Shown: positions 3,095 through 21,500 of the stretch, in pieces
Numbering within the stretch: position 1 is the first letter of the stretch
Layout of the letters: the number at the start of each line of letters is the position of its first letter
Source: a virus
IMG/VR virus record: IMGVR_UViG_3300025122_000008
Location: 1 to 64,000 of that record
Direction: 5' to 3' (one strand)
Length of the DNA: 64,000 bases
Notes under the pieces: model-generated
What the model was told of the DNA's origin: nothing
Seen by the model: only the letters and a program-made list of their open reading frames with translations
Database searches by the model: none
Position numbers and translations under genes: made by a program

Positions 3095-3435
3095 CATATT
3101 TAGTATTAGGTTTATTAGTATCGGTGGCTTTTAATATTATATTGATTTGGTATTTAAGTAATGTGTTATCTAAACTTTTATATACGTCGGATAATTTAGG
3201 AGATTTGTTTATTGCATTACGTATGTATGAAGGGTTTGTAACCTCTTTATATAATATGGATGCGTATCATGGTGAACCAATTATCGAGGAACTAATACTA
3301 AAAACCAAATTACTTCGTGAAGAAGTACAACGGTTTGATCAGATATATGGGCTTACAACAGATACAGATTCCCTTGAAGAGGTACTAGCGAATGACGATG
3401 ATAGAGAAGAAGAAGAAGCGGCGCAAGAGAACTAA
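3091..3435 (+). CDS. Hypothetical membrane-anchored protein
   Basis: N-terminal hydrophobic helix (YLVLGLLVSVAFNIILIWYL) and an acidic tail. Confidence 0.65.
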   Translation: MTYLVLGLLVSVAFNIILIWYLSNVLSKLLYTSDNLGDLFIALRMYEGFVTSLYNMDAYHGEPIIEELILKTKLLREEVQRFDQIYGLTTDTDSLEEVLANDDDREEEEAAQEN

Positions 3436-4102
3436 AAATTATTATTTTACTAAGGTTCACGAAGAAGCAATAGTAGAATATTCACAACCAAATACCACGA
3501 GAGAGCGCAAGTCTGAGCTTTATGTTGCGCTTATCCAGCCAGCACTCAACGAGATGGTTAATAAAATAGTTTTTACTTATAGGTTTACCTCACTTCCCAA
3601 CATTGACTCTCTAAGAGAGGACTGTAAGATTTGGCTTACTACAATACTTGATAAATATGATCCAGATAAGGGATCAAAAGCATTTTCATATTTTAGCGTT
3701 GTTACTAAAAACTGGTTTATTCACAAGGTAAAGAAAAACGCATCTCGTGCCAAAAAAGAGGTGTACCTTGAGGATATGATAAATAAAGTTGAAGAAGATG
3801 TGGTATCTTCTGAGAAACAATATGACCAAATAAGAGAAGAGCAGGAATTTTGGCAGAATTTTACTAAAGAGATGTCTAGTTGGGACGTGGATATGCTTAA
3901 GGATAATGAAAAAAAAGTTCTTGAAGCGGTTAAGATTATATTTGAGTCCTCGGCCGATATAGAAATTTTCAATAAAAAAGCTATTTATTTATACTTAAGA
4001 GAGATAACGGGTTTGAATACCAAACAAGTGGTTAATAACCTTAATAAGCTTCGTAAAAAATATAGGGTATTTAAAGGAAAATGGGAAAGCGGAGAAATTT
4101 AG
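3392..4102 (+). CDS. RNA polymerase sigma factor, T4 gp55-like (late transcription)
   Basis: Sigma region-2-like segment LDKYDPDKGSKAFSYFSVVTKNWFIHKVKK, N-terminal NYYFT, and a C-terminal HTH-like segment (YLREITGLNTKQVVNNLNKLRKKY). Sits directly upstream of structural genes. Confidence 0.7.
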   Translation: MTMIEKKKKRRKRTKNYYFTKVHEEAIVEYSQPNTTRERKSELYVALIQPALNEMVNKIVFTYRFTSLPNIDSLREDCKIWLTTILDKYDPDKGSKAFSYFSVVTKNWFIHKVKKNASRAKKEVYLEDMINKVEEDVVSSEKQYDQIREEQEFWQNFTKEMSSWDVDMLKDNEKKVLEAVKIIFESSADIEIFNKKAIYLYLREITGLNTKQVVNNLNKLRKKYRVFKGKWESGEI

Positions 4103-4377
4103 AAGATTATATCAACGAAGCAACCCGAAATATTCGGGAGGATCGTGCATTGGCCAAAACACTTCTTATGGAGGCCATGGGCGATATGAAGACTGGAGAA
4201 ACTACTCGCCGCGAACTTGGTCCAATCGCAGCCAAATACATTGAAAACTTACAGCGCTCTAATGAGCAGATGGTTAAGCTAACATCGCTTCTACAGAAAC
4301 AAAGCCATGGCATTGAGGGACTTTCAGAAGAAGACAAAGCAGATATATACGATGTGCTAAACAGAGAAACTGAATAG
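4081..4377 (+). CDS. Hypothetical helical protein
   Basis: 98 aa ORF overlapping both neighbours. Confidence 0.7.
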   Translation: MGKRRNLEDYINEATRNIREDRALAKTLLMEAMGDMKTGETTRRELGPIAAKYIENLQRSNEQMVKLTSLLQKQSHGIEGLSEEDKADIYDVLNRETE

Positions 4378-5621
4378 TGTCTCGTGGGAAAAAAACATCT
4401 CTTTTGGATATTAAATTTGGTGAGCTTAATAGCTCCTATCTTGAGGCCGAAAACGCACCAAACCAACACTCCTTAAGCCATCGGCGCACGTCCATTTCAA
4501 GTGCGTGGAGAGCGGCCAGATCAGACTGGTATACGCCTGATTTAAACGTGGGTCTTGATTCTCCCGCCTACGCCTTAATACTAAGGTCAACCCAACAAAA
4601 GAGGCCCTTGATGACAAATTCTGTACAGCTACTCAAGGCTAACTTTAATTCGACCTCCGTTAACGAAGAAGTGTTGGTTACCGAGGTGCCTAAATATTAT
4701 ACGTATAAAGTTTGGCCACTTGAATATAATTCAGCTGCTCACGAACCTCCTAAAAGCCTATCCGAGGTTAAAGGAATGCACCAGGGTAGAATTAATATGG
4801 CGCCAGACGCGTTTGCCGAAATGGGTTCTAGTCTAGAGGGGGTATCGCTGCCGCCGGGGCTGGTTTGTGAGTATAGATATGGGAATAAATATGGAATAGA
4901 CACTATAGTGCTTACTAAAGTTGCTGGCGAACAATTTCAATTTCAAGGCGTAAAAATAGATGATTCTTGGAAAGGTGCTGTATTACAAACACACATGAAT
5001 GTTCCCCCGGCTCCACAAGCCATTATCCCTGGAAACCTTATGTTGATTGGCGACAGTCAAACCTCGTCAGTCACTTTTAGATCTACTTTGAAAGCCGGGC
5101 TAAAAGCGAAGGGGATCACAATGCATGCGCAGTGGAAATCTGGTACTGGAGTGCTAGCTTGGGGACAGAAATCAGAAGGGGATTATTGGGAAATCGAGAA
5201 TCCGTATGGTAAATTATTTTCTGAAGTTAATAATTTTCGGCCAGAACACATTATCATAGAGCTTGGAGGAAACGACAGTCGTGTATATTTTAAGAAAGAA
5301 TCCGCGTATGGAATAAGATTAAGGTTGTGGGCAAAACTTCTTATTGCAACCGGTGCAAAGATTTATTGGTTCGGCCCTTCTTTTTCAACTCAGACTGGTT
5401 ATGACCCTTTGAGACAAAAGATAAGAGATTTTCAAAGAAATATATTCTCCAACACATCTGTAACCTGGTATGACATGGTACCACATACGACTGGCCTAAC
5501 TTATCAGGCTAATGATCCAGGGGTGCACTTTGATCAGAGTTCATATAAAACGTGGGCCGAGCGCTTGCTTGCCGCGGCGCCGCTAGCAAATATTTCTCAT
5601 ACGGCGGCCCCAAGCGCATAA
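4377..5621 (+). CDS. Baseplate-hub-associated paralogue 1: shared N-terminal domain plus SGNH/GDSL hydrolase
   Basis: First ~200 aa are homologous to the next two genes. C-terminal SGNH blocks: LMLIGDSQT, KSGTG, IIIELGGND, NDPGVHF. GTG start overlaps the previous TAG. Confidence 0.75.
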   Translation: MSRGKKTSLLDIKFGELNSSYLEAENAPNQHSLSHRRTSISSAWRAARSDWYTPDLNVGLDSPAYALILRSTQQKRPLMTNSVQLLKANFNSTSVNEEVLVTEVPKYYTYKVWPLEYNSAAHEPPKSLSEVKGMHQGRINMAPDAFAEMGSSLEGVSLPPGLVCEYRYGNKYGIDTIVLTKVAGEQFQFQGVKIDDSWKGAVLQTHMNVPPAPQAIIPGNLMLIGDSQTSSVTFRSTLKAGLKAKGITMHAQWKSGTGVLAWGQKSEGDYWEIENPYGKLFSEVNNFRPEHIIIELGGNDSRVYFKKESAYGIRLRLWAKLLIATGAKIYWFGPSFSTQTGYDPLRQKIRDFQRNIFSNTSVTWYDMVPHTTGLTYQANDPGVHFDQSSYKTWAERLLAAAPLANISHTAAPSA

Positions 5622-5665
5622 AAGTAAATGTTGGGGGTAATTATAGACGAACTACGGTATATAAC

Positions 5666-6295
5666 ATGGTAAACAAATATAAAAATATTTCAGACATTAA
5701 ATTTGGCCAACTTAACGATTCGCTTTTACAGGCAGAATTCAGCCCCGCTCAGCAAACTTTAAGCAGAAGACGAACCTCTACGACTCAGGCACTTAGGGCC
5801 CCCGTTAAAAGTCTTTATGAACAAGATTTGGCCAAGGGCACTGACCGCGCGGCCTTTGCCATAATATTAAGGGCTACCGAGCAAAAGAGGCCCTTGATGA
5901 CAAATTCTGCGCAATTGCTTAAGGCCAATTTTAACTCGACTTCTGTCGGTGAAGAGGTGTTGATTACTGAAGTACCCAGGTATTATACTTATAAAGTTTG
6001 GGTTTCGGAGGGGCCTTCCGCTGCCCACGAACCTCCTAAAAACCTATCCGAGGTTAAAGGAATGCACCAGGGTAGAATTAATATGGCGCCAGATGCGTTT
6101 GTTGCTTCGGGTACCGGCTTTGAAGGTACTAGGCTTCCCCCCGGATTAGTTTGTGAGTATAGATATGGAGATAAATATGCCCAGGCGCCCATAATATTAA
6201 CCAGGCCGGCCCCTATACAGTTTCAACTGCCGGGCGTCAAAATGGATGATACCTGGAAGAATCCCCTGAGGCCCCGGTCGGGTTTGGTGACTTAG
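5666..6295 (+). CDS. Baseplate-hub-associated paralogue 2: shared N-terminal domain only
   Basis: Start reassigned to ATG 5666 (MVNKYKNISDIKFGQLN), which aligns with the starts of paralogues 1 and 3. Ends shortly after the shared GVKMDDTWK motif. Confidence 0.7.
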   Translation: MVNKYKNISDIKFGQLNDSLLQAEFSPAQQTLSRRRTSTTQALRAPVKSLYEQDLAKGTDRAAFAIILRATEQKRPLMTNSAQLLKANFNSTSVGEEVLITEVPRYYTYKVWVSEGPSAAHEPPKNLSEVKGMHQGRINMAPDAFVASGTGFEGTRLPPGLVCEYRYGDKYAQAPIILTRPAPIQFQLPGVKMDDTWKNPLRPRSGLVT

Positions 6296-6296
6296 T

Positions 6297-7592
6297 ATGG
6301 CAAGAAAATATAAAACTATTTCAGATATTAAATTCGGAGAGCTTAATGGTTCGCTTCTCCAGGCGGAATTAAGCATGGAACAGGACTCTTTAAGTAAAAG
6401 GCGAACCTCTACGACTCAGACGCTTAGAGCGCCAGCTAAGGCACAATATGAACAAGATTTAGTCGGCGGATCCGATCGTCCTCAGCTTGCTATAATACTG
6501 AGAAGCACCGAACAAAAGAGGCCCTTGATGACAAGTCCGATACAATTACTTAGGGCCAACTTTAATTCAACCTCTGTCAGCGAAGAGGTGTTGATTACTG
6601 AAGTACCCAGGTATTATACTTATAAAGTTTGGCCGATCGAATATAATTCCGCAGCTCTAGAGCCACCCAAAAGTTTGTCCGCTGTTAAAGGAATACATCA
6701 GGGCAGAATTAACATGGCGCCAGATGCATTTTGTGCACCAGGATCTGATTTTGAGGGCGTCGGGCTTCCCGAAGGATTGGTTTGTGAGTATAGATATGGA
6801 GATAAATATTCTCTTTCTCCTATACTGTTAACGCGCCCGGCCGATATACAGTTTCAGCTACCGGGCGTTAAGATGGATGACACCTGGAAAAGTCACATGA
6901 AACAACGCTTTCAATTAGATCCCATGAATATTCCTGGTCCAGTGGTACCCGTAAAGGATACTATTGACTTTTTCAACAAAATGAAGGGAAGTGGCAAATT
7001 CCCCGGGTTCTGTGATGCTATGATTGCTGGCATGGTGGCGAATGCCAAAAGTGAATCCAATTTTAGGAACAATGCTGTTGGTGACAAAGTTAGCGATCTT
7101 GGCGCCAACGCCAGACGTACTGAACGAGCCATTTTTACTACTCCACGCCAGAAAACTAAATGGACTGGTACCGGCGGCGAAGATTATTATTGTTCTTTCG
7201 GATATTGGCAATTGAACGTTTGCGGCGGCGGTGGCGTAAGATTTGCAAAAAAATTTGGATTTTGGCCAACTCACGCGGGGAACAAACAAGCTCTTCTTAC
7301 GGCCATACACGACCCAGATAAACAATTTGACTTTATGTTTGAAGAGATGAAAAGAATATTTGGGAGTAAAGTATCGGACTGTTCTCTGGATGGCACATAC
7401 TGGGGCCAACAAATAGCAATAAAATTTGAAAAATGCGTTGGTTGCTTTGAGCCGGGGTACAGAAAAGTTACAGAATCAGGAAGAGTATTAGACGACAGGG
7501 GGACATTAAAACGTGGTGCAGTTGCTCAAGGTTTGCTTGAGGTTGTTAACAAGGGTGGGATCCCCGGCAGACCCATACCCCCCATTGATTAA
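6297..7592 (+). CDS. Baseplate-hub-associated paralogue 3: shared N-terminal domain plus phage-tail-lysozyme-like domain
   Basis: Shared N-terminal domain, then IAGMVANAKSESNF..NAVGD...SFGYWQLN...DPDKQFDFMFEEM...FEK, the pattern of the phage tail lysozyme (lysozyme-like, catalytic ES) family. Confidence 0.7.
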   Translation: MARKYKTISDIKFGELNGSLLQAELSMEQDSLSKRRTSTTQTLRAPAKAQYEQDLVGGSDRPQLAIILRSTEQKRPLMTSPIQLLRANFNSTSVSEEVLITEVPRYYTYKVWPIEYNSAALEPPKSLSAVKGIHQGRINMAPDAFCAPGSDFEGVGLPEGLVCEYRYGDKYSLSPILLTRPADIQFQLPGVKMDDTWKSHMKQRFQLDPMNIPGPVVPVKDTIDFFNKMKGSGKFPGFCDAMIAGMVANAKSESNFRNNAVGDKVSDLGANARRTERAIFTTPRQKTKWTGTGGEDYYCSFGYWQLNVCGGGGVRFAKKFGFWPTHAGNKQALLTAIHDPDKQFDFMFEEMKRIFGSKVSDCSLDGTYWGQQIAIKFEKCVGCFEPGYRKVTESGRVLDDRGTLKRGAVAQGLLEVVNKGGIPGRPIPPID

Positions 7593-7609
7593 AAAAAAGA
7601 TATAGGATA

Positions 7610-7616
7610 CTAATTA
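7610..7616 (+). promoter_or_regulatory. Putative late promoter motif CTAATTA
   Basis: Intergenic, 4 nt before ATG 7621. The same motif recurs in many intergenic gaps. Confidence 0.45.
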
Positions 7617-7620
7617 TATT

Positions 7621-8667
7621 ATGGCAGACGAAGACAACAGCTTCCTGACAAATCCAGGACCTGAAAACGACAATAGCGCAGGATCATTTGGGACCTTTAA
7701 ATTAAAGAAACCTTCAATGCTGGCACCACAAGGAAACAACAAGAGGCCCATACAATTGTCGATTTCTCCTGCTGTAAGACAACAGTTTGAGGAGATGACA
7801 GATGAGGCTAAACTTATGTATTCTGGGGTGGGAAATGCAAAAACTCCCCCCACCGACGTTCCAAACTATATCGCCGCAGAAGCAGAAGATATTATATCAA
7901 ATGGCAACTCTTGGATTGTGTTGGGTAAGGATCGGCCCGGAACTATTGGTGATGGGTTTGGCGGCCTAGGCAATACTCATTGTGCAGCGATTGATTTAGT
8001 CGCAGGTAGAATGGGCGGCCGAGCCACACAAATGGACGCACAGAACGAGGCCGTATATGTAAATCCTAATTTCACTATGGATGCCGCGCGCATATATATT
8101 TCTCAAAAATCTGATATTGATCATTATTTAGATCTTAGGCCCGGAACGGTGGGGAACACAACATATCTTAAGCCCGCATCCGCAGTAGCGCTCAAAGCGG
8201 ATGCCATACGAATCGTCGGACGAGAGGGTATAAAACTTGTTACATGTACAGATGTTGAGAACTCTCAAACAGGAGATGTGAATGTTAATGCCGGAATAGA
8301 CCTGATCGCGAACAATGACGACGAAGATATGCAGCCACTAGTTAAAGGCGATTATTTAGTTTCAGCATTGCAGGAGATATTTATACAGATAAATGATACT
8401 CGCGAAATATTATATAATTTTCTAGCAACCCAAAAGGATTTTAATCGCGAGATAATGTCACACACTCACCACTCTCCATTCTTTGGTATTCTAACATCTC
8501 CCTCTCCTGCGGTTTTGGCACAAGGGGTTAAGAACATGATTGATATTATCAAGGGTGCTGAGGTTCAGTGTTATAATCACCTTAATAACAGCAATATGGC
8601 CCAGCTGAAATATGCTAAAGAAACTGGAGCAGCGTACGTACTTAGTAAGTATAATCACACCAATTAA
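7621..8667 (+). CDS. Baseplate central spike-like protein (gp5 C-terminal / gpV-like)
   Basis: Alternating beta-strand segments (WIVLG, IDLVAG, RIYISQ, VALKADAIRIVGREGIKLVT), QPLVKGD, and SHTH, the HxH metal-binding tip motif of spikes. Precedes gp25/gp6. Confidence 0.55.
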   Translation: MADEDNSFLTNPGPENDNSAGSFGTFKLKKPSMLAPQGNNKRPIQLSISPAVRQQFEEMTDEAKLMYSGVGNAKTPPTDVPNYIAAEAEDIISNGNSWIVLGKDRPGTIGDGFGGLGNTHCAAIDLVAGRMGGRATQMDAQNEAVYVNPNFTMDAARIYISQKSDIDHYLDLRPGTVGNTTYLKPASAVALKADAIRIVGREGIKLVTCTDVENSQTGDVNVNAGIDLIANNDDEDMQPLVKGDYLVSALQEIFIQINDTREILYNFLATQKDFNREIMSHTHHSPFFGILTSPSPAVLAQGVKNMIDIIKGAEVQCYNHLNNSNMAQLKYAKETGAAYVLSKYNHTN

Positions 8668-8679
8668 CACAAAAATATT

Positions 8680-11600
8680 ATGGCCAATACACGACTAATC
8701 ACAGACTGGCTTTCTAAGGAAGTATTAATACCATATGCCGACGGTGAACTAAACTATATCATTGTTACGGCCCCGGCCGAATATTCCGACCTTTCAAAAG
8801 AAGAGATAATATCGGGCTTTGAAAATCGAATTTTCGGTGATGCAATACGGGGTTTTCTTAAATTCTATTATCCTGAGATGTACTACGCGGGAATGGATCC
8901 CGACGATCTTGCAGATCGACTAGAACAAAGGTTTTTAGCAACACTAGCTACGATAAACGAAAGGGCAGCCGGCGACGAAGACCTGCGCCAGATCGACCCG
9001 AATCGATTCCCTGCGGAAAACATGGGCCAGCTGTCCGCGGATTGGAATTATGAAAAAGCCGACGAACTCTATGATCAAATTAGAGCCGACGTATCAATAG
9101 TGTCGGCAAGAAAGAAGCGCCGCCCGGGTTCTCGTTGGCATTTTCTGGTTGCAACTAATTTAGACGTTGGTAATATCTACGACGTTCGATCACCCGCATA
9201 TGATACGGTGTCCACTAGCTTCGATCTTGCTAGAGAATGGTGGTATGAAAACAATGATATTACTGCTGGGAACTCCGGAACTGTAGTAACTTTAAAATGG
9301 GCCAACATCAATAAAGAATATCAAAAGATTGAAACTCTTTTTTCAAAATATAATATACAAAAAAGGCATTTTGATGGACAGATAATACCAGATATCGATT
9401 TTGGGCAAGAGGCTCTTCAACTGGCAGACGCAATAAGTATGATAAGAACAATTATCAGATTAAATGGGTTTAGCTCGAACACATCCCAAAACGATGAAGT
9501 TACAATACTTTTAGACGCCGCCTATAAATTAAAAAAAATCTCCTATATGCAACCAAACGTGTCCTTGAACTATGTTCAATGTAACGTGGGCTATTTTGTA
9601 TATAGCCTAAAAAATCCTTTCGATAATTTTCAGACCATGGTTTATTTGAGTAAATGGAAAAACTTACTCGATCTAACAGATCCTTCTTACAATTATGATA
9701 AACGATACAGCATTTTTATTAATTTTATAAAAGATTATTCCAGCTCTTATCTAAGAGAATATGAAATAAACTATTGTGGCACCCCCCACAGCCCGCCGGC
9801 GATGGCTGGCGTACAGGACAGTTTTACGACACCCATTCAAGATAATTCGGCTTTTGGCGGCCCGAATTCGATTGATGTTGATGGGACCATGGAGTCAACA
9901 GGCTTGTTCGGTGCCAAAAATAAAACCTTGTATTTAAGATTTTCCAACGTACAGTTACAAAGCAAGGTCATGAAAAACCCTGTAAACAAGAAGCTCATAT
10001 TGGAAGATCAGTATTCCAAGGTAGAACAGAAGGCAGAAGACGCGATTAAAAAAGTAATGGAAGGCCTCAGAAAGATTCAGAATTCTGAGGAGATGTCCAT
10101 TATCAAAGACGTTCTCAACAAAGTAGGCATTGATGTTATAATTATAGAAGCTATTAAATGTCTCGCGTTTAACTCCAATTTTGATCCGAATAGTGTTAGA
10201 TCAGACATACGAGATCTGGTGTCTGAAACCGGAGATCTCTGGGCCGGCCGAAAGCCACCCATGGGAATTAAATTGCCCGATATAGAAATAAAGATTCCTA
10301 TATTTTCCATGACTGGCGGTCTGGATAAGATCATGCTAAAGATGATCGAGGATGCGCTGATGGAGATTGTCGCCGCGCTGATTCAAGCCATGGCAGATAT
10401 AATTAGAGACTCGTGCGCGGCGAAGGATTTATCAGGAGGAGACTATGGTGAGTTAGATTTGTCGGACATGTTTAATATAAATCCGGATAAAGATACTCCT
10501 GATGTGCTAGGCGAAACAGAAGGAACTCCCTTACATGCGTGTTTTGAGGCAAATAATATTCCAACTGCAGTCGGAATGCAGTATATATCTCGGGTTTCGA
10601 ACATATTAAACCCTTCTGAGATTTGTCAACTTTTAAAAATGTCTGCTCCGGTTAATGTGGTGGAAGCGGTTAGAGAGTTTAATGAAGCCTATGAGGAGCC
10701 AGCAATTGTTGAAAATCTAAATACACATACGGCGATAGTGACCTTTTTTGGCTGTTTGGGCGATATGGTAGATATTGATTCTATTTGTGATACGCTAGTA
10801 AGCAATAATATCCTCCCCAATGTGGATGATGTTTGTTTTAATGAGTCTAACCTATTATCTGCGACCGATCTGTTTAATTTAAACAACCTCTTAGATATGC
10901 TTGAAAATGGAATACAGCTGGAAATTCCTGAAATAAACATAACATGCCCCACCAAGCCGGGGTATATACCAAACCCTCTTGTTGATAGGTCTATACCACA
11001 GTTAATAAGCGCTCTTGCGGAGTCTGTGGCGATTAATTTTTATCTATCTGTTGATGGCCTCAAGGCTGTTTTACTAACATCTACGACGTCAGCTGGGGAC
11101 TCCGCTGCCGCATGCGCACTTGAGCTTGCGCCCGAAGGTCCCGGCTTTACGACCCCAGAAGAGGGCGCGGGTGTCGACTCCGGCCCCAATAGCCCCATGG
11201 GGAAGATGGCCAAGGGCCTTCGTGACCTGGCTGATAAGTTTTCCGAGCCCAACGACTTCCGGGAGCTGATGAAGGACTGCGGCATGGCCGAGGATGGTTC
11301 CGATATATTTGGAGGAGCGGACAATCTCACCGCGGCCGTCGACGCGCTGGCCGAGCTTTTAGAAAACTTTGATTTTTCAGCAGCGGTTCAGCTGGGCAAC
11401 GATATGGATGCGGCTGCTGAGGCAAGCGCCAATGGTATTTTACCTTTAGCTAACTATGAATTTCCCCAATCCTATAAGGACGCTTTAAAAGACCTGGTTC
11501 CAGACATATCGTTTAATTCAATCAGGTACCGCCCGACCTTCGACTGGATCGAAGTTTTAAAAGACGAGCCGGAGCTGCACACCGACTTCTTTAGGGCGGG

Positions 11601-14600
11601 TAAGACCAGGTCCCACGGTACCGGGAGCCATGGCTCTCCAAAGCATCTTCACTTCCGATTTACGGATGGTGGGTGGTCGATGGCCAATATTGAAAAAGAG
11701 GTAATAAAATATGGCGGTGGTGGGTCCCCGCGCGCTGCCAGAGCAGCGCCGGGCCTCACAGGGGGGGACGAGATCATCTTATCGGTTTCCATTACCGGTC
11801 CGACCGTGTTTAGAGATAATCCAACTTTTATAGCCGAAACATATAATAGGCAAGAGCTTCTTGACAATCTGGGTACGGTAGCCGATAACTATGTCACTTC
11901 GAAGTTACACAACCCAGCACTTGATGCTTTTGCCGGTATGGCACTTTCTTCTTTTAAGAACTTCTTGGAAGGACACGAAAATGTTGTTGATACCCCCGAA
12001 TGCCGCGATAGTTGGCTAGAAGACTTCTTTAAAGCTAATCAAAGGAGTTATCATCATTCAGTAACTGCTGGACTTGTTAATGGCTTTACTGAGTATATAC
12101 TTGGACATGGTCGATTTAGTACTGAAAGCTTTATGAAAATGCTCCTTCGTCGCGACAATACAAATTGTATTAATGACCCATCAAAGGTGGGGGATCTGAT
12201 GGATATGAATGGTATTGTTAAAGACGTACAAGACGAATATAATGATTCAATGTGCAACGACACTATGTCGATGGAAGATACATTAGATGGGTGTATAATT
12301 TTCGGAGCACAACTTTTATTTTTCCAAATAGCCGCGGTTAAGTTTTTCTTGAAAAATGTGAGTGCCCTTTCCGCATTTAAATTGTCTGAAGTGTGGAAAT
12401 TAAATGTTGTAAGAGATTTTGTAACGGCTACTGTTTTTCGCGAGGCTCAACGCTATATAGAAAATTCAAGTGCCTCTACCTCTGTAGGAGACTTTACGAC
12501 CAAATTTGTTGAACACGCAAATGAATGGATGGGAAGAAAAATAAATCGGGAGGATCCAAAACTCGACCGGGACGTATTAGATACATTGGGTATTAATTCT
12601 GATAGGCTTAGCGATCTTTTGATCGATAATAACGCACTTAAGTATATTTTGATGTGGAGAATGAAAAGATCAGCCACCGCTGTCGGTAATATAATATCTA
12701 AGCCCGGCGCCGGCCCGCAGGACGCAAGGTCGATAGAGGATATTTTTATAAGATTTATTCTTGGGTTTGCAGCACCACTCGGTGGTGTACCTTTTCACAA
12801 AGGTACGGTGGATGTGGAGAACGCGTTGGCCACCTCTACTAATATTTGGAATCATAAAATTTCTATCGACAGCACCGTTCCCGGTATTAAGGAATTATTT
12901 GCATACGGTGGATTCAAACTAGAGCCTTACTTAACGTGGGACGCGAACACCTGGGACATCCAGCCCGGCGACACGGGCGTAGAAAATATTATTGCTTCTA
13001 AGCCAGTTTATACCAGCAGACTTATGTTAACCGGCGTCGAAGACGAAGACGGCGCCTCTCTATCGAAATTACGACGCTATATACAAATTAATGATCCCCA
13101 TGCATCGGCCCGGGCGGCCGCCGCTGCCGCCGCAGGAATCCCGGAGCCCCCGGGGCCCATGGACTATAAAACACTTATCAATCCCAAACTCAAATATCGA
13201 CTGGTATATTATGTCCCGGCTGAATACGATCGAAACTTTGGGGACGTCGAGGCGAAGAAGCGCAAATTTAGAACAATTTCCACCTTGCTAAAGGAATATA
13301 TCGAGCTTGATTACAGTGAAGAAGACGAAGACGCCGCCCTCGAATCGGGTATTCTTGACACTAGCAAGCTTAATAAGATATTCAATGATCGTGAAGCGTT
13401 TATTCCGCTTTCTATATATAAACCTCGGGTTCAATCTTCTGAACAGGTGGATTCGACTATAAGTCTTTCGCTTCCACAATGGGAGCCGTATTATTCAGCT
13501 GACGATCCCGACACCGGCTGCGGCTACATGAATCGCACGCATTCTGGCCACTTCGGTCAGTACCGAGACCCTTCGAACGGGCACCTCCACGGCGAACCAC
13601 CAGCTTTCTGCAATGATCCCGGGTATCCCGAATCGACGCCTCTACAAGAAGGTCATGGGTGGGCCTGGATAAGAGATAAGGGCCTGGACACCGACGACGA
13701 CGGGGATGTAGACGCATCGGAGTTGCCCTGGGATGATCCCGCCGGCCACTACGAACAGCAGCCGCTTACTGAAGAAGTAACCGAGACGATGGACACCTCT
13801 ATACCGGCAAACTTTAGAAATGAGGTAGCCAGCTTTGGTATACCAATAATGGAATTTTCGGTACCAGAGCTAGATCGAGGTGAAATTACTTTGGCCGAAG
13901 TGAAAGACTATTATCCAACTAAATCTAGCCAGCACTCACACAACTTAAAGAGTTCTCCGGATTATCCAAAATTTCAATATTTCTTCTCAAAGATTTTTGA
14001 TAGAGACCTGGCCCTGACAACTGCGTTAATGAATAATTTCTATCAATCAGAAACCAGATTCTCTTCCGGAATCAATGAGTTGTTTTATGGTACCGTTGAT
14101 TCAGCGGCATATTTGTTTTTGACAGCGATGGAGACCCCACGCGGCTCGGGCATCCGAGAGGACAGGTCCGTGGGTATTCCCGGAGTTCAAAATCCTACTG
14201 GTGGTGCCCCCGCGATTGACATGAGAGGATATATACTCAAGGCCCTAATGGAAACGCCCCTTAAAATTCTTAGAGGAGTGTGCGAAACTATGGACCCTCA
14301 CGTGGCAATCATGAAAATAATACGAGACGTTACTGGTCAAGTTATAGACCAGGTTATTGACGGAATGGAGATGGGGCTAGAAGTTGCCGGTGAAGCGGAT
14401 CCAACCGGGGTATTAAATGCAATTGATATAAAAGCAGAAGGCCTCGTCGATTTAATGTTCTGCGGGATTAACGAAGCCAATGAGGAAATGATTGATGATT
14501 TATGGGACCCTGCTGAACTTTCTGCCAACGACGCATGTTTTGATATTGGTATCAATGCACCCCCGCCACCGTCTCTGCTTCCCAAATTTGAGAAGACGGG

Positions 14601-14742
14601 TATAGATTTTACCGGAACATTACCAGGATTGTTTATGATGCCTCCTGGCCCATTTGGTATATTGTATTTTCTTTTGGGCCTTTTGGACCTAGACAAGGCA
14701 GAAGACGAGGCCCTTCTAGAAGAAGAAGAGGATTCTTGTTAA
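8680..14742 (+). CDS. Very large hypothetical virion/baseplate-region protein (2020 aa)
   Basis: Long open frame between the spike-like gene and gp25. Helical and acidic, with GC-rich patches and an EF-hand-like loop. No family recognised. Confidence 0.6.
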   Translation: MANTRLITDWLSKEVLIPYADGELNYIIVTAPAEYSDLSKEEIISGFENRIFGDAIRGFLKFYYPEMYYAGMDPDDLADRLEQRFLATLATINERAAGDEDLRQIDPNRFPAENMGQLSADWNYEKADELYDQIRADVSIVSARKKRRPGSRWHFLVATNLDVGNIYDVRSPAYDTVSTSFDLAREWWYENNDITAGNSGTVVTLKWANINKEYQKIETLFSKYNIQKRHFDGQIIPDIDFGQEALQLADAISMIRTIIRLNGFSSNTSQNDEVTILLDAAYKLKKISYMQPNVSLNYVQCNVGYFVYSLKNPFDNFQTMVYLSKWKNLLDLTDPSYNYDKRYSIFINFIKDYSSSYLREYEINYCGTPHSPPAMAGVQDSFTTPIQDNSAFGGPNSIDVDGTMESTGLFGAKNKTLYLRFSNVQLQSKVMKNPVNKKLILEDQYSKVEQKAEDAIKKVMEGLRKIQNSEEMSIIKDVLNKVGIDVIIIEAIKCLAFNSNFDPNSVRSDIRDLVSETGDLWAGRKPPMGIKLPDIEIKIPIFSMTGGLDKIMLKMIEDALMEIVAALIQAMADIIRDSCAAKDLSGGDYGELDLSDMFNINPDKDTPDVLGETEGTPLHACFEANNIPTAVGMQYISRVSNILNPSEICQLLKMSAPVNVVEAVREFNEAYEEPAIVENLNTHTAIVTFFGCLGDMVDIDSICDTLVSNNILPNVDDVCFNESNLLSATDLFNLNNLLDMLENGIQLEIPEINITCPTKPGYIPNPLVDRSIPQLISALAESVAINFYLSVDGLKAVLLTSTTSAGDSAAACALELAPEGPGFTTPEEGAGVDSGPNSPMGKMAKGLRDLADKFSEPNDFRELMKDCGMAEDGSDIFGGADNLTAAVDALAELLENFDFSAAVQLGNDMDAAAEASANGILPLANYEFPQSYKDALKDLVPDISFNSIRYRPTFDWIEVLKDEPELHTDFFRAGKTRSHGTGSHGSPKHLHFRFTDGGWSMANIEKEVIKYGGGGSPRAARAAPGLTGGDEIILSVSITGPTVFRDNPTFIAETYNRQELLDNLGTVADNYVTSKLHNPALDAFAGMALSSFKNFLEGHENVVDTPECRDSWLEDFFKANQRSYHHSVTAGLVNGFTEYILGHGRFSTESFMKMLLRRDNTNCINDPSKVGDLMDMNGIVKDVQDEYNDSMCNDTMSMEDTLDGCIIFGAQLLFFQIAAVKFFLKNVSALSAFKLSEVWKLNVVRDFVTATVFREAQRYIENSSASTSVGDFTTKFVEHANEWMGRKINREDPKLDRDVLDTLGINSDRLSDLLIDNNALKYILMWRMKRSATAVGNIISKPGAGPQDARSIEDIFIRFILGFAAPLGGVPFHKGTVDVENALATSTNIWNHKISIDSTVPGIKELFAYGGFKLEPYLTWDANTWDIQPGDTGVENIIASKPVYTSRLMLTGVEDEDGASLSKLRRYIQINDPHASARAAAAAAAGIPEPPGPMDYKTLINPKLKYRLVYYVPAEYDRNFGDVEAKKRKFRTISTLLKEYIELDYSEEDEDAALESGILDTSKLNKIFNDREAFIPLSIYKPRVQSSEQVDSTISLSLPQWEPYYSADDPDTGCGYMNRTHSGHFGQYRDPSNGHLHGEPPAFCNDPGYPESTPLQEGHGWAWIRDKGLDTDDDGDVDASELPWDDPAGHYEQQPLTEEVTETMDTSIPANFRNEVASFGIPIMEFSVPELDRGEITLAEVKDYYPTKSSQHSHNLKSSPDYPKFQYFFSKIFDRDLALTTALMNNFYQSETRFSSGINELFYGTVDSAAYLFLTAMETPRGSGIREDRSVGIPGVQNPTGGAPAIDMRGYILKALMETPLKILRGVCETMDPHVAIMKIIRDVTGQVIDQVIDGMEMGLEVAGEADPTGVLNAIDIKAEGLVDLMFCGINEANEEMIDDLWDPAELSANDACFDIGINAPPPPSLLPKFEKTGIDFTGTLPGLFMMPPGPFGILYFLLGLLDLDKAEDEALLEEEEDSC

Positions 14743-14798: not shown

Positions 14799-15203
14799 AT
14801 GTCAGCAAATGATCAAGGTTTATCTGTGGCACTTCCTCTGACTGTAGATCCTACATTCGGCCCATATGGTTTAAACACCACATATGAAGACCTAGCAAAA
14901 CAAAATCTTAAAATGCTTTTGTTAACCAACAGGGGTGAAAGAATAATGCATCCCAATTTTGGTGTAGGCCTTAGATCTTATTTATTTGAACAAAACTCGC
15001 CCGTAACTTTTGGAGAGATTGATAGGACTATAAGAAAACAGGTTGATAGATATCTTCCATACATTGGAATTAATACAATAAAGTTTTCTACTTCGGAGGT
15101 TGGCAACGAATTTGATCCTAATTTTATGGGGGTAACAATATATTTTACAATATTACCAATACAGGTATCAACATTTTTGCAGATAAGTGCCGACGAAGGC
15201 TAA
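14799..15203 (+). CDS. Baseplate wedge subunit, gp25-like
   Basis: QNLKMLLLTNRGERIMHPNFGVGLRSYLFE...RYLPYI, the GPW/gp25 signature. Confidence 0.92.
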   Translation: MSANDQGLSVALPLTVDPTFGPYGLNTTYEDLAKQNLKMLLLTNRGERIMHPNFGVGLRSYLFEQNSPVTFGEIDRTIRKQVDRYLPYIGINTIKFSTSEVGNEFDPNFMGVTIYFTILPIQVSTFLQISADEG

Positions 15204-15231: not shown

Positions 15232-17031
15232 ATGCCCAAGAAACTACAACCCATTAACTATACTAGCCGTAATTTTGATAGTATCCGTCGGGATTTAGAA
15301 AATTATGCTAAAAGATATTACCCCAACACTTTTAAGGATTTTAATGAGGCTAGCTTCGGCTCGCTAATGCTGGACACTGTTTCGTATGTTGGGGATATAT
15401 TATCTTTTTATTTAGATTATCAAACAAACGAATCTTTTTTAGATAGTGCTATTGAATACAACAACGTTATTCGATTAGCTCGCCAAATGGGCTTTAAATT
15501 AAGTCCAAGCCCTTCTTCATATGGCCTTGTTACATTTTATATTGAAATTCCTTCTACTACAACTGCTGGTGGAACACCTAACACCAATTATGCACCCATA
15601 CTCAAAGCGGGCTCACAGTTTTCTTCTGTTGGTGGCGGCACGTATACGCTTTTAGAAAATGTAGATTTCGCCAAGTCATCAAATTTAATGGTAGCCGGCG
15701 CAGTAAATTCTACTACTGGCGCACCCACAACGTATGTTATTCGCGCACAGGGTCGTATAGTTTCGGGAAGAGTTACTAGAGAAACCATCACATTAGGAGG
15801 TTTCCAGAGATTTTTAAAGATACCACTGAAATCTAACAAGGTAGCTGACATTATTTCTGTAAAAGATTCCGAAAGTCATATGTACTACGAAGTTGACAAT
15901 TTATCACAAAATGTGATTTATAAGGCAATTAACAACAACAACTCCGATCGAAATACCGCTCCGTCTATTTTGAAAGCTGTTCCGGTTGCACGAAGGTTTG
16001 TGTTGGAATATGATGGCGAAACTGCGTATATGCAGTTTGGGTACGGATCTGACTCAGAGCTTTTGTCTGAATCAATAGTCGACCCCTCAGAGGTGGTTTT
16101 AGACCTACATGGGCGTAATTATATTACTGATACAGAATTTGATCCAACCAGACTTATAAGTACAGACAAATTTGGCATTGCTCCGTCAAATACAACTCTC
16201 ACCATAGCTTATCGAGTTAATACCACGCAGGATGTTAATGCCGCGGTTAACAGCGTAACGCAAGTTGGTGCTGCCAATTTTAAGTTTAGAAATGCCGGAG
16301 CCCTTAGTCTTGATACCAGAGAGACGGTTAGAACATCGTTAGAGCTTACGAATGAAAATCCGATAGTGGGGGACGTTTCTCTTCCATCATCCGACGAAAT
16401 ACGTCAAAGGGTAATTGCGCATTATGCGGCCCAACACCGCGCCGTGACATTAGAAGACTATCAGGCAATCACTTATGGCATGCCGGCAAAATATGGATCT
16501 TTAAAGAGATGCGTTGCATCGCGTGATTTCAGCGAGTTTAAACGAAATATTAATTTATATGTTATATCAGAAGACCCAGAGACGATGAGATTAACTTCTG
16601 CCAACAGTACACTTAAATTGAATTTAAAAACTTGGCTTTCGCGGTATAAAATGGTGAATGACACCATTGACATATTAAACGCGAGAATAGTCAACTTTGG
16701 AGTGGAGTATATAATAGTCACTGATTACGAAACCAATAGATTTACGGCCCTTAATCTGGCTAACGCTGCGCTTAGAAAATACTTTAGCAAGGTGGGCGAC
16801 ATTGGTGAGCCTGTATATATTTCTGATATGTATAGGGTACTTCAGGATGTTCCCGGGATTATTGACGTTTTAACAGTTAGGGCTGTTAATAAATCCGGCG
16901 GTATTTATTCCAGTTATGCATATGATTTTGATGGTGCGACGTCGGCCGACGGCCGTCGTATTGATGGTGCAAAGGATATTATTTTTGAATTAAAATATCC
17001 AGACGCTGATATTAAAGGATCGGTAAGATAA
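15232..17031 (+). CDS. Baseplate wedge subunit, gp6-like (baseplate J family)
   Basis: NYTSRNFDSIRRDL, DFNEASFG.LMLD..SYVGDILSFYLD, ESFLDSA, LARQMG, QFGYG, RAVTLEDY. Confidence 0.9.
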   Translation: MPKKLQPINYTSRNFDSIRRDLENYAKRYYPNTFKDFNEASFGSLMLDTVSYVGDILSFYLDYQTNESFLDSAIEYNNVIRLARQMGFKLSPSPSSYGLVTFYIEIPSTTTAGGTPNTNYAPILKAGSQFSSVGGGTYTLLENVDFAKSSNLMVAGAVNSTTGAPTTYVIRAQGRIVSGRVTRETITLGGFQRFLKIPLKSNKVADIISVKDSESHMYYEVDNLSQNVIYKAINNNNSDRNTAPSILKAVPVARRFVLEYDGETAYMQFGYGSDSELLSESIVDPSEVVLDLHGRNYITDTEFDPTRLISTDKFGIAPSNTTLTIAYRVNTTQDVNAAVNSVTQVGAANFKFRNAGALSLDTRETVRTSLELTNENPIVGDVSLPSSDEIRQRVIAHYAAQHRAVTLEDYQAITYGMPAKYGSLKRCVASRDFSEFKRNINLYVISEDPETMRLTSANSTLKLNLKTWLSRYKMVNDTIDILNARIVNFGVEYIIVTDYETNRFTALNLANAALRKYFSKVGDIGEPVYISDMYRVLQDVPGIIDVLTVRAVNKSGGIYSSYAYDFDGATSADGRRIDGAKDIIFELKYPDADIKGSVR

Positions 17032-18575
17032 TGGCAATTAAAAGATATGTAGCCGCTGTGGACAACACGATAGCCAATGCTTTTGAGGCCAACCTGTCAA
17101 CTCGGGGCACCGGTTCAAATATGGGCGCTGCTGATAGCTTGGAGGTTTTTTCCTTGTACGGGCAGGTTTCTTCATCGACAGGCCCCAGTAACGAACTTTC
17201 TAGAATACTTATAAAATTTCCTATTGCAGGCACTCTAACCGCTAGCGCGCCAGATATACTTGCTGATCGAAATGCTAGTAAAATTCCTGCTAGTGGTAGT
17301 GTTAATTTTTATTTGAAGCTTTATAACGCGGAACATCCCTATACCCTTGGAAAGGATTACCAATTAAATATTTATCCCGTTTCTTCTTCTTGGGAAGAGG
17401 GATATGGTCTAGATATGGAGGAGTATAAAGATCTCACCTATGATAGTACCGGGTCTAATTGGGATCGCCGCGGGAACGCAGGCGCCTGGAATACAGGTAG
17501 CGGCGGCGGAGATTATAGATCTGATTATAATTTTACAGCTAGCTTCCTAAATGGTTGGGAAGATCTTGAAGTTGATGTAACGCCCGCGGTGGAAAGGTGG
17601 ATGCAAACGTCTGGGACCTCGCTACACTTTGACAATCACGGATTTTTAATTAAGCTCACCAACAATCAAGAGTCTGCTAGCTTTTCATATTACACAAAAA
17701 AGTTTTTCGCTCGTTCAACAGAGTTTTTCTATAAAAGACCAGTTATTGAAGCGCGTTGGGATTCTCGCACAAAAGATGATCGTGGAGATTTTTATTATAG
17801 TAGTTCGTTGGCGCCTGCCGCAGATAATTTGAATACAATATATATGTATAATTATGTAAGAGGTCGTTTAATAGATATTCCCAATTCTTCTAGTGTGGGC
17901 CTTACGGGATCTCTGCTGGTAAGTGTTTATTCGGGATCTACAGTCCCGACCGCCTCAAAATTACTTTTGCCGGCTGGCGGAGGAGTTGCTGCAGCATCGG
18001 ATTACAATATCACAGGCGGGTGGGTATCAACTGGAATTTATTCGGCATCCCTTGCTTTAACGGCAGCCGCCACTTCTTTAACAAAAATTTTTGATGTTTG
18101 GCATGATGGTACGGAAGAAACTAAAGGAAGCAATATTGAATATTATACAAGCTCATTTGCTCCTCAAAAACTAAGCGCCCATAATAATGCGCCCACTTTT
18201 GAGTATGTTTCTAATATAACAAATCTTAGATCTCAATATATGCGTACGGAAGACGCGCGCTTTCGATTTTTTATTAGAGAAAGAAACTGGAACCCAACCA
18301 TATATTCAGTTGCTACGGCGGCAATATCGAACACAACGCTAGTAAGCGCCTCATATAAGGTTTTAAGATTGACGGACGAGCTAGAAGTAATTCCATACGG
18401 CACCGGTAGTGATTATCAAACATATCTTTCTTATGATGTTTCCGGAAACTATTTTGATTTAGACATGAATCTTCTCGAAAAGGATTATGCATATGGTATT
18501 AAACTGGCATATTACAACAACTCGATTGGTTCTTGGGTAGAACAACCAGAGATGTTTAAATTTAGAGTAGAATAA
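17031..18575 (+). CDS. Virion structural protein with DNRLRE-like beta-sandwich
   Basis: SRILIKF, FYLKLYN, SWEEG.G, DLEVDVTPAVERW, NHGFLIKL, KKFFARSTE, RPVIEARWD. Baseplate context. Confidence 0.55.
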   Translation: MAIKRYVAAVDNTIANAFEANLSTRGTGSNMGAADSLEVFSLYGQVSSSTGPSNELSRILIKFPIAGTLTASAPDILADRNASKIPASGSVNFYLKLYNAEHPYTLGKDYQLNIYPVSSSWEEGYGLDMEEYKDLTYDSTGSNWDRRGNAGAWNTGSGGGDYRSDYNFTASFLNGWEDLEVDVTPAVERWMQTSGTSLHFDNHGFLIKLTNNQESASFSYYTKKFFARSTEFFYKRPVIEARWDSRTKDDRGDFYYSSSLAPAADNLNTIYMYNYVRGRLIDIPNSSSVGLTGSLLVSVYSGSTVPTASKLLLPAGGGVAAASDYNITGGWVSTGIYSASLALTAAATSLTKIFDVWHDGTEETKGSNIEYYTSSFAPQKLSAHNNAPTFEYVSNITNLRSQYMRTEDARFRFFIRERNWNPTIYSVATAAISNTTLVSASYKVLRLTDELEVIPYGTGSDYQTYLSYDVSGNYFDLDMNLLEKDYAYGIKLAYYNNSIGSWVEQPEMFKFRVE

Positions 18576-21500
18576 TGTCTTTACGCAAATACTTTCAAAA
18601 AGCGCAGGAGATAAAAAATCTTTCCAATCTAAGCGAAGAAGAGGTTGCTGGAGAAGTAGAGTCTGTTGGCTTTCACGAAGCTGATGTTGTAAAAGACAAC
18701 CGGTTTATACCGGCGGTAGATTACTCAGATCCAGCAAATTTTGCCAGGTATGGATCTGCAGTAGAGTATTACGATCGATCAATAAAATGGATTTATGGAG
18801 ACTATCCTTATGATGGTTCACTTAGAGAGAAACTAGAGTGGGAAAATAGTTCTTCGTACGTAGATCTATATATATTTGAAAATAAATATCCCAGATCTAA
18901 TGGATATGCACTGTTTTCTGCTGATGGTTGGGGCGCCCTCGCAAGTACTGCCCACCAGTACGGCACCCCCTCTAATTTAGAATACATTTATATAAAAGGA
19001 GGGCCCAACACCAACCCAGATGGGATGTCACCGTTCCGCCTTGCATTTACGGGATCAAACTATCATGAAACCGCCTCTAATCGTGCATCAAACCTAGAAT
19101 TTGATTTAGTGAATAAGGGGGCAAGTGTTGAGTTTTGGCTGAAGAAGACCGCTTTTGATGAAGATCTGACTGGTCGTGAGGTTATATTTGATCTGTGGAA
19201 CCTTAAAAACTCTGGTAGTGACGGATATGGAAGACTTAGAGTAGAGGTTACGGGTGGTGTAGGGTATAAAGGATCGCCCTTCCTCATCACTTGTCATTCC
19301 GGGTCTAGTACGACACCATATGGATTCGTAACCGAATCCGTTGGGCTAAGTTTGACGGGCGCCCTAGAAACCTGGAGCCATTATGCCGTTACTTTTAAAT
19401 CAGCTTCTGACGGCGTTGATGTTCGCCTCTATAAGGATGGCGCTCTAAACCATTCGGTTACCACGGGGAGCAATATTGGTATCGTCACAGGCGCCCTAAA
19501 CGCCACCATTGGTGCGTTAATTGTCCCCCCCAACAATATCAGTGAATCAGGTTCCGCAGGCGCTGGAAAACTGTCTGGTTCAATCGACGAGTTTAGATAT
19601 TGGAAAACACAAAGATCTTCTAAAGATATTGGTCGTTATTGGTTTACACAAGTAGGTGGCGGCACCAACAGCGATCCGACGCCTGGCCGCATTGTTACAT
19701 CCGCAAGCCTAGCCAATACCAGATTGGGTGTATATTATAAATTTAATGAAGGGATTACGGGTGATGCCACTACCGATGCTAAAGTTCTAGATTATTCTGG
19801 TCGTATTAGTAATGGTACTTGGACGGGGTATGATTCATATTCTAGGAATACTGGTTCAGCTATACTCTCAGCCAGCGCCGCAATTAGGGAATTTGAAGAT
19901 CCAATTATTTACGACGCTCACCCCGATGTAGTGTCCCTTAGTGCTGAACTAGCCGCGTCTGGCTCTCAGCATGATGCAACAAATAACGCCTCCCTTTTTA
20001 ATGCGATGCCCACGTGGGTTATAGAAGAGGATGAACTTGGGAGCAAAGATTTAAAATATTTAACCCAAATAATGGGCAGTTATTTTGATACCCTACACCT
20101 TCAAATAGAATCTCTCAACAGACTTAAGGATAAAACATATATAACCGGTAGTGATAAGCCTCTAACATTTGCAAATAGGCTCCTAGAACAGGCCGGCCTA
20201 ATATCCCCAGAAATGTTTTTGGATGTTGATATATTAGAAAAATTAGCTGATCGATCAGAAAAAAGGCTATATGAGAAAAACTTAACTGATATTAAAAATT
20301 CAATTTATCAAAACATATACAACAATCTATCGTATATATACAAATCAAAAGGCGCCGAAAAATCATTCCGGAACCTGATTCGTTGCTACGGAATAGATGA
20401 CGAGCTTATTAAATTTAATATGTATGCAAATAATATTGAATTTGAATTACGCAATAACGTTACGAGCCACGTTTTAGCAAAAAGATATGCAGACTTTAAT
20501 ACCACATCGAGTATAGAAGCAACAGTATACCAGTCAGGAAGTTATATAAGCGGTAGCCGCAATTTGTCTGATGGCTTTGCTTTTACGGCCGAAGCAAATG
20601 TTATATTCCCCGAGAAACTATCGCGGACCGATAAAAAGTTTATTGGTCTGCAGTTTATTTCTGCTTCTATATTTGGTTTACACAGTTCCTCACACGAGAC
20701 TCAAGACGCGATGGATCCGGAGTGGGCAGAACAAGATGCTGTAAACTTCCAAGTATATGCCGTACGTGATGAGCTGGGGTCTCCAAACGCAAAATTTGTG
20801 TTAACCGGTACAGCCGGCGGCTATGTTCCGCGACTTACTAGTAGTTTATACGAAGATGTTTATGATAATACAAATTGGAATTTGGCCGTAAGAATCAAGC
20901 CAGAAAAGTATCCTTATGCAAATCTGATTATGGAACCATCAACTGGTTCCGTTGGCCCGACTTATATTGTTGAATTCCATGGTATAAACATGCAAGATGG
21001 TACCATCATTAATGAATTTAATGCAACGGGAAGTATTACGGCTCCGCCAAAAATGTTTGTCACAGGATCCCGAAGACTATATGGGGGCGCCCATCGTACA
21101 AACTTTACTGGTTCGTTATTACAGTATTCCGATATCAAGCTGGGTTCTATACGCTATTGGTTTAATTATCTAGAGAACACCACGTTGGCTGCCCACGCGA
21201 AAGATATACAGAATCATGGTACTTTGCGTGCTGCTTCATATCCATATTTGTTTCAGCCCTCAGCTTCTTTTGGAGAGTTAAGCGAACAAGAGACATTGGC
21301 GCTTAATTGGGAATTTACTAATATTACTGGTTCTGATGCTAATGGGCAATTTACGGTATATGATATATCAACAGACTCTACAAGTCCATCAACAGGTTCA
21401 TATGGGTGGCTTGGACCCCTATTGTTGAGCGATCACGAAGGAAAGGGCTATGGATTTGCTTCGAATGATACGACTGCAATTGATAAAGATTATGTTACAG

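Follow-up and report, generated by a model that had tools for sequence, protein, structure and literature searches.

A shared N-terminal domain carrying different enzymes in three tandem genes, a candidate split gp5-like tail-tip unit of an uncultured marine myophage

When analyzing the first 64 kb (64,000 nucleotides; the window) of the 98,425-bp IMG/VR virus record IMGVR_UViG_3300025122_000008, which has a CheckV completeness of ~53% and comes from an uncultured marine T4-like myophage, we found three tandem plus-strand genes with a common N-terminal domain (N-domain) and different C termini: an SGNH-type esterase domain in gene 1, nothing in gene 2, and a lysozyme-like domain in gene 3. On balance, and with confidence only a little above even, we read the three products as paralogous tail-tip virion proteins that together form a genetically split gp5-like spike base with swappable enzymes. 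What is new here is an unrecognized family of putative docking domains, a triplicated module with a different cargo on each copy, and a conserved copy without cargo. The genes and domains concerned are the following.

4377..5621, + strand: gene 1 (P0001, 414 residues), N-domain followed by an SGNH/GDSL-type esterase domain, assigned from motif blocks and Pfam matches below the cutoff
4377..4973, + strand: N-domain of gene 1 (residues 1 to 199)
5666..6295, + strand: gene 2 (P0007, 209 residues), N-domain plus an 11-residue tail, without cargo
6297..7592, + strand: gene 3 (P0003, 431 residues), N-domain followed by a lysozyme/lytic transglycosylase-like domain
6945..7556, + strand: lysozyme-like catalytic domain of gene 3 (residues ~217 to 420), assigned from a fold match and a Pfam match below the cutoff
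7621..8667, + strand: P0004 (348 residues), candidate spike shaft and apex with H281-x-H283, proposed from its position, the HxH motif, and atlas leads

The N-domain comprises ~198 residues, 109 alignment columns of which are invariant, with protein identities of 65% between genes 1 and 2, 66% between genes 1 and 3, and 76% between genes 2 and 3. Similarity breaks off right after DD(S/T)WK, at residue 199 in gene 1 and residue 198 in genes 2 and 3. A search of the phage's own record found exactly these three copies. An earlier reading of the DNA without database searches (the sequence-only reading) had described a shared N-terminal domain of ~200 residues whose homology stops sharply after DD(S/T)WK, gene 1 then continuing into an SGNH hydrolase, gene 2 stopping, and gene 3 continuing into a tail-lysozyme-like domain; this description was borne out by the alignment and the own-genome search and, for the C termini, by the motif blocks and the fold match given below. 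The start of gene 2 is most likely the ATG at 5666, which gives 209 residues, and not the GTG at 5552 of the longest open reading frame (ORF), because homology with the paralogues begins at that methionine and the public gene call has the 209-residue form. The stop codon of gene 2 lies 1 nucleotide ahead of the ATG of gene 3.

The C terminus of P0001 has Pfam matches to DUF459 (8.4e-5; score of 22.5 versus a cutoff of 27.2) and Lipase_GDSL_2 (4e-4; 21.3 versus 32.9), both below the cutoffs. Two homologues of this domain, P0143 and P0144, with 36 to 39% identity, have precomputed PF13472/PF00657 matches and share with P0001 the GDSQT, GGND, and GVH blocks, in which the SGNH residues of P0001 are Ser227 (GDSQT, block I), Asn299 (GGND, block III), and His384 (GVH, block V). 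P0001 had no match among PDB sequences or in NCBIfam. O-acetylpeptidoglycan as the substrate of the gene 1 esterase is purely conjectural, and attractive because SGNH domains are constantly paired with glycosidases in the related gene arrays described below; acetylated polysaccharides or lipids are alternative substrates.

P0003 matches Phage_lysozyme2 (PF18013) at 2e-4 and 22 bits, under the cutoff of 28.2, and the same profile is over the cutoff in gene 3 homologues (29.5 bits in P0010 and 70.5 bits in the second N-domain gene of the related contig L006). In a VIA-align search, the model of the gene 3 cargo matched the lysozyme domain of phi29 gp13 (3csq_A) with a Z score of 12.5 and a root mean square deviation of 3.3 over 139 residues; the lytic transglycosylases next in the list scored clearly lower. 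An ES motif (Glu253) and a GYWQ motif (residue 302) are conserved in the family and typical of the superfamily. The top three viral structural neighbors of the gene 3 model in BFVD, A0A1B1IUR3, A0A1B1IUR4, and A0A1B1IUT8 (456, 472, and 440 residues, respectively), have adjacent accessions and may represent another trio in a deposited uncultured virus genome. P0006, from Tara, has the same lysozyme cargo as gene 3 behind an N terminus that falls outside the hidden Markov model (HMM) of the family and was not counted as a member.

To investigate the distribution of the N-domain, we searched 1.84 billion representative proteins exhaustively with its profile. Only 14 hits were obtained, all of 400 to 494 residues with the domain at or near the N terminus and a variable C terminus; a broader N-domain HMM additionally picked up P0143 and P0144. 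The N-domain had no match in Pfam, PHROG, NCBIfam, or PDB sequences, and PHROG and NCBIfam gave nothing for any of four proteins, the trio and P0004. Among 50,697 deposited phage records, there was no DNA or protein match with the region, P0003, or P0004 and no cultured relative with an N-domain; for P0021 and P0008, the cargo domains alone matched these records, to cyanophage endolysins or lysozymes.

The cargo of the family is Phage_lysozyme2, a second lysozyme type with a GRYQ motif, Amidase_2 (P0014, 1.7e-27), VanY (P0017, 6.9e-14), Peptidase_M23 (P0018, 6.3e-12), GDSL/SGNH, or none. Gene 1 of the related contig L004, with lysozyme2 cargo, is sister in the N-domain tree to P0015, with GRYQ cargo (support of 98/97), and L004 gene 2, with GRYQ cargo, groups with P0017, with VanY cargo, so that the closest docking domains bear different enzymes. 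Cargo is modular and swappable across the relatives, as the sequence-only reading had supposed, and homologues do not always carry the same enzyme.

Such a set of enzymes could also belong to modular endolysins, with the N-domain as a cell wall-binding part and the genes encoding enzymes that lyse the cell from within when the infection ends. Lysozyme, Amidase_2, VanY, M23, and SGNH domains are the usual catalytic repertoire of endolysins, and the GRYQ cargo matches annotated cyanophage endolysins. However, in every relative the genes are part of the baseplate module, three copies occur per genome with one conserved copy that lacks a catalytic domain, the shared domain is N-terminal, no lysis-cassette neighbors were seen, and virion-associated hydrolases have the same catalytic repertoire (PMC10966104). 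We therefore consider endolysins a very improbable explanation.

The relatives, contigs from the IMG/VR and JGI/Tara metagenomes, share a gene order: a gene of ~237 residues, a gene of ~98 residues, the N-domain gene or genes, a P0004-like gene, an ORF of ~2,000 residues, gp25, and gp6. This order is kept in L004, L006, L007, and L016. In each case read, the N-domain is present in either one or three copies, and the cargo varies. There are three copies in the window, in L004 (lysozyme2-like, second lysozyme type, and SGNH), and in L006 (two of lysozyme2 type, then GDSL/SGNH), and one copy with lysozyme2 cargo in L007/L016, L012, and L013. Every trio has one SGNH enzyme and at least one glycosidase. 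The SGNH domain of the window has no BLAST similarity to those of L004 and L006 and stands first in its trio, not third, so the pairing of SGNH with glycosidase may have arisen twice. This recurrence suggests a testable idea, namely, that these phages strip the host wall of a protective ester modification. One contig of 10,071 bp carries P0015 and P0017, and another of 15,104 bp carries P0144 (SGNH) together with an Amidase_2 member, which hints at two further arrays; IMG/VR searches with P0144 and P0017 found nothing. A subgroup of single-copy proteins (P0009, P0010, P0011, P0013, and L013 1329-2834) has an extra N-terminal extension of ~45 residues rich in Cys, Lys, and Arg, which is absent from the trio genes and from the L007 copy.

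Phylogenetic analysis shows that the window trio is monophyletic in the N-domain tree (97/97), as is the L006 trio (96/93). The cargo domains of L004 and L006 are positionally orthologous, with 52% identity between the first genes and 46% between the third genes, and the simplest account of these two contigs is an ancestral trio with concerted evolution of its N-domains. In the window trio, the synonymous divergence (dS) is about 1 for genes 2 and 3 and about 2 for gene 1 versus the others, and the ratio of nonsynonymous to synonymous divergence (dN/dS) is 0.13 to 0.17 for all pairs, the cargo-less gene 2 included. The N-domain copies are therefore old and held similar by purifying selection, and its action on gene 2 argues that this gene is functional, which fits a structural subunit. 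Genes 1 and 2 also share a gene conversion tract.

4731..4808 and 6017-6094, + strand: gene conversion tract between genes 1 and 2, from identity excess, permutation, and the proportion of synonymous differences (pS)

Nucleotide identity in the tract is 95 to 97%, versus 65% overall (permutation p of about 1e-4), and pS between genes 1 and 2 is 0.16 in the tract versus 0.76 to 0.82 in other segments. Wholesale gene conversion as the cause of the within-genome clustering of the window N-domains was rejected: a dS of 1 to 2 marks old paralogues, and the conversion tract is local.

How three such subunits might assemble can be considered in the light of these results. A stricter form of the split-gp5 reading is an obligate 1:1:1 heterotrimer, in which the paralogues would assemble together about the threefold axis of the tail, so that each virion would deliver one esterase, one lysozyme, and one bare subunit, and in L004 and L006 three different enzymes. 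Multicopy lineages always have three copies, never two or four (the window, L004, and L006), and both major clades of the N-domain tree include trios. The genes are closely spaced and all point the same way, the N-domain cores are kept alike by selection and conversion, as expected for a common docking site, every trio pairs SGNH with a glycosidase, and specialized VgrG heterotrimers provide a precedent (PMC10433429). However, there are only three trio genomes, two of them of common ancestry, the single-copy relatives (L007/L016, L012, and L013) must use homotrimers, and interfaces of fixed order would tend to diverge and not be homogenized. We hold the obligate heterotrimer to be possible but doubtful. 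If true, it would be a threefold docking ring with three payloads, kept uniform by selection and conversion while the enzyme cassettes are exchanged between phages, and a phage counterpart of mixed specialized VgrG trimers. To our knowledge, no heterotrimeric central spike complex has been described in a phage.

Alternatively, the subunits may form interchangeable homotrimers or randomly mixed trimers, so that virions would differ in enzyme load, as bet-hedging over host walls, or would have a stochastic load. The single-copy relatives show that a homotrimer is viable, the subunits stay equivalent through the conserved core of the N-domain and the conversion tract, and cargo is freely swapped between lineages. 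Yet a gene 2 homotrimer would deliver no enzyme, although gene 2 is under purifying selection, and the recurrence of three copies and the constant pairing of SGNH with glycosidase would be left unexplained. We judge this assembly unlikely, and less probable than the heterotrimer.

For the split-gp5 reading itself, the fold of the N-domain is central. An AlphaFold model of P0003 was built on the 14-sequence alignment. Residues 58 to 196 form a five-strand barrel with two helices in this model, with a predicted local distance difference test score (pLDDT) of about 70 to 82. Foldseek gave weak matches of the N-domain to uS12-type OB-folds. A second structural search with residues 58 to 196, independent of Foldseek, matched residues 3 to 82 of phage P1 baseplate chain 9vzk_q (Z of 6.5), residues 6 to 124 of Klebsiella phage KP1 baseplate chain 9f4a_BB, which has 564 residues (Z of 5.5), and residues 365 to 456, the gp5-like OB, of VgrG1 (4uhv_A; Z of 5.5). 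Weak BFVD matches include cyanophage proteins named "baseplate hub + tail lysozyme" and a protein named "Gp5 N-terminal OB-fold domain." The ESM Atlas yielded neither a usable hit nor a model for the protein that consists of the N-domain only. An OB-type barrel as the core of the N-domain is reasonably supported by the model, and the matches suggest a specific kinship to the OB domains of spikes. The family also has a motif that we take to resemble the GDPxxP signature of VgrG. The gp5 of phage P1 is an OB-fold with a beta-helix needle and no lysozyme (PMC9024508), which fits chain 9vzk_q, the identity of that chain being unconfirmed.

The spike itself would be P0004. A P0004-like gene always lies directly 3' of the N-domain gene or genes. 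P0004 contains HTHH, in which H281 and H283 are invariant across 45 homologues; this HxH is 65 residues from the C terminus, between two predicted helices. Among the spikes of contractile tails, a conserved HxH in the C-terminal part has been described as the one sequence feature common to all, and an HxH near the C terminus serves to mark the spike apex (bioRxiv 10.1101/2023.02.25.529910). The nearest named clusters to P0004 in the atlas are DUF2345, Gp5_C, and Gp5_trimer_C at 0.82 to 0.84, which the tool rates as leads only. Given its position, the HxH, its constant adjacency to the N-domain, and the weak atlas leads, we take P0004 as the most likely source of the piercing shaft and apex. 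Its family comprises more than 1,393 proteins, all unnamed and from marine metagenomes, with 37 invariant columns that include HxH, D-R-P, and G-R-x-G. Since this family is spread far more widely than that of the N-domain, most relatives must use another upstream partner, such as P0006 with its other N terminus and the same lysozyme. In the P0004 model, a low-confidence beta-rich middle precedes a C-terminal helical hairpin that is modeled confidently and has HTHH at its turn. Since the fold searches gave only generic hairpins and one unnamed homologue, we rejected any claim on the fold of P0004.

Several results weigh against the split-gp5 reading. The P0003 model is of moderate quality (pLDDT of 63.7), with residues 1 to 57 poorly modeled and containing one helix, and the unrelated OB-folds of PAN, YjeQ, Nmd3, and RNase II score equally in the structural search, where Z scores of 5.5 to 6.5 are in the common range. 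Neither single proteins nor profiles had any match among PDB sequences. A six-frame search of the record for PF06714 (Gp5_OB, at E of ≤1), PF04717, and PF06715 found none, three related records (G001 to G003) had no Phage_base_V match at E of ≤10, and hhalign of the N-domain family against T4 gp5 was not significant (E of 0.63). For P0004, the monomer model is poor (pLDDT of 57.8), the C-terminal helical hairpin is untypical for a spike apex, fold searches returned generic helical hairpins (VIA) and one unnamed BFVD homologue but no spike fold, and hhalign of the family against T4 gp5 was again not significant (E of 0.085). HxH motifs also occur in fibers and tailspikes (bioRxiv 10.1101/2023.02.25.529910). 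As to the esterase, P0001 lacks the canonical Asp of block V (DxxH): its sequence there is D-P-G-V-H, in which Pro381 takes the place of the Asp of P0143 and P0144, and the third genes of L004 and L006 read DGLH there.

With no sequence link to gp5, gpV, or VgrG, OB-folds being common, and the Z scores undiagnostic, the N-domain could have its place outside the central spike, in the tail lumen, in ejection proteins associated with the tape measure, or at six-fold baseplate sites (3 × 2), the spike then being P0004 alone or another protein. Unassigned ORFs of 765 and 380 residues beside a gp26-like hub gene, the latter at L008 13156-14298 and a gp27-like hub candidate, could be the real hub or spike base, and the record is only about half (53%) complete. 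On the other side, the N-domain gene is always immediately 5' of the P0004-like gene within the baseplate cluster, an N-terminal helix and OB-fold followed by an enzyme is the gp5-type order, and no other Gp5_OB, Phage_base_V, or Gp5_C candidate, nor any other spike-like OB candidate, was detected in the 98-kb record. We see a nonspike location as improbable, somewhat more so than interchangeable trimers.

A gp5-like hub role remains plausible. The sequence-only reading had proposed a split gp5 and raised the question of a gp5/VgrG OB-fold for the shared domain. This is supported in part: the module sits where gp5 would be expected in a T4-type baseplate cluster and models as an OB-type barrel with spike-type OBs among its matches, but no sequence kinship to gp5, gpV, or VgrG was found. 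In the split-gp5 mechanism, the docking module at the N terminus, in which a five-stranded OB-type barrel follows a conserved leader that includes a short helix, would resemble the N terminus that anchors T4 gp5, P2 gpV, and VgrG in the hub, and would bear an interchangeable periplasm-acting enzyme past the sharp boundary. P0004 would provide the shaft and apex, which in T4 are part of the gp5 polypeptide itself. Once the sheath has contracted, the module would reach the periplasm; there, the glycosidase would cut glycan strands and the esterase would remove an ester modification, with O-acetyl groups on peptidoglycan as one candidate.

The closest known plan is that of T4 gp5 and the cyanophage "baseplate hub + tail lysozyme" proteins, in which an N-terminal OB-type barrel, as modeled for the trio, precedes a muralytic domain, and whose genes likewise lie beside baseplate wedge genes. 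In T4, a separate piercing part stays associated after proteolytic cleavage of gp5 into gp5* and gp5C. Unlike in T4, the lysozyme of the trio is similar to phi29 gp13 and Phage_lysozyme2 and not to T4L, there is no Gp5_OB or Gp5_C sequence similarity, and three paralogues have different cargo with the beta-helix not in the same polypeptide; the trio genes have no Gp5_C beta-helix, ending after the enzyme domain or the N-domain, and PF06715 is absent from the record. Two variants of the gp5 plan, the P1 gp5 mentioned above and CBB_240 of jumbo phage CBB, a gp5 OB with lysozyme and without helix (PMC5259590), give precedent for dividing gp5 functions among genes. These are, however, single genes recognizable by gp5 profiles, for which no paralogous array with mixed cargo has been described.

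The specialized (evolved) VgrG proteins of type VI secretion resemble the trio in having a conserved spike or docking part with swappable C-terminal effectors, including peptidoglycan hydrolases, and VgrG paralogues of one system can mix in one trimer (PMC10433429). In VgrG, however, the cargo lies past the beta-helix at the tip, and here it lies directly past the OB module, with the shaft apparently in a separate gene; the trio also has no sequence match to Phage_base_V, Phage_GPD, or DUF2345, and a heterotrimer is only a tentative proposal for it. phi29 gp13 (lysozyme and M23 peptidase), which the gene 3 cargo matches best, is like the trio in combining different wall-degrading activities, in its case at the tail tip, but both are in one chain of a podophage knob without an OB-type N-domain. 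In the Anabaena myophage A-1(L), the hub protein gp15 places lysozyme, endoglucanase, and peptidase domains at the center of the baseplate (PMC10966104). The gene 3 model also matches the lysozyme domain of gp15 (8kea_A; Z of 7.6), but the gp15 enzymes are inserted in one gp27-like hub polypeptide, whereas here there is one per paralogue of a small docking domain.

Contractile-tail phages must cross the peptidoglycan, and in the known solutions, one polypeptide of the spike, hub, or tape measure bears one or more enzymes. In the present phage, the enzyme holder appears to be a separate small docking module, triplicated and exchanging catalytic cassettes between lineages. Confirmation in virions would show how a threefold site carries a mixed set of enzymes, in parallel to type VI secretion spikes, and would provide a new family as a marker of tail-tip enzymes in a large, uncultured group of marine myophages.

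The genomic context is that of a T4-type phage. Morphogenesis genes in the record include gp25-like and gp6-like genes, large terminase, portal, and prohead protease, and the sheath, the tube, and the gp26-like hub protein are encoded in the same record outside the window. The neighbors of the module are as follows.

4081..4377, + strand: gene of 98 residues, function unassigned, directly 5' of the trio and syntenic in relatives
8680..14742, + strand: ORF of 2,020 residues between P0004 and gp25, syntenic in relatives
14799..15203, + strand: gp25-like baseplate wedge or sheath initiator (Pfam GPW_gp25, 4e-12; phrog_261, 1.5e-17)
15232..17031, + strand: gp6-like baseplate wedge subunit (phrog_10646, 2.8e-19; phrog_219, 7.3e-17)

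The 98-residue gene has no family match in Pfam, PHROG, or NCBIfam; ORFs of 98 to 100 residues also precede the module in L004, L006, and L007. The giant ORF at 8680..14742 has no match in Pfam or PHROG. An ORF of ~2,000 to 2,160 residues always lies between the P0004-like gene and gp25, a conserved giant protein of the baseplate region, with counterparts in L004 (6355-12387, >2,011 residues), L006 (14101-20535, 2,144 residues), and L007 (4548-11042, 2,164 residues). Two genes 5' of the module, a gene of 236 residues (3392-4102) is kept in all relatives. It has a weak PHROG match to a late sigma factor (phrog_234, 8.5e-4), and its counterparts in L004 and L006 have only weak SlyX-like coiled-coil matches.

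The CTAWTTA motif is not enriched in the window (22 found versus 31.7 expected), and it was accordingly not taken as a promoter. A GDP-mannose 4,6-dehydratase (1459-2433; Pfam, 5.5e-126), an auxiliary sugar-nucleotide gene, is encoded shortly 5' of the structural module. An ORF of 3,389 residues (18575-28744), located 3' of the gp6-like gene and a gene of 514 residues, may encode a giant gp7-like wedge or fiber protein. Further downstream, a protein of 1,066 residues (32930-36130) has a Hint/intein-like domain near the C terminus (Pfam AXH, 3.8e-11; PT-HINT, 1.6e-6; Intein_splicing, 6e-5).

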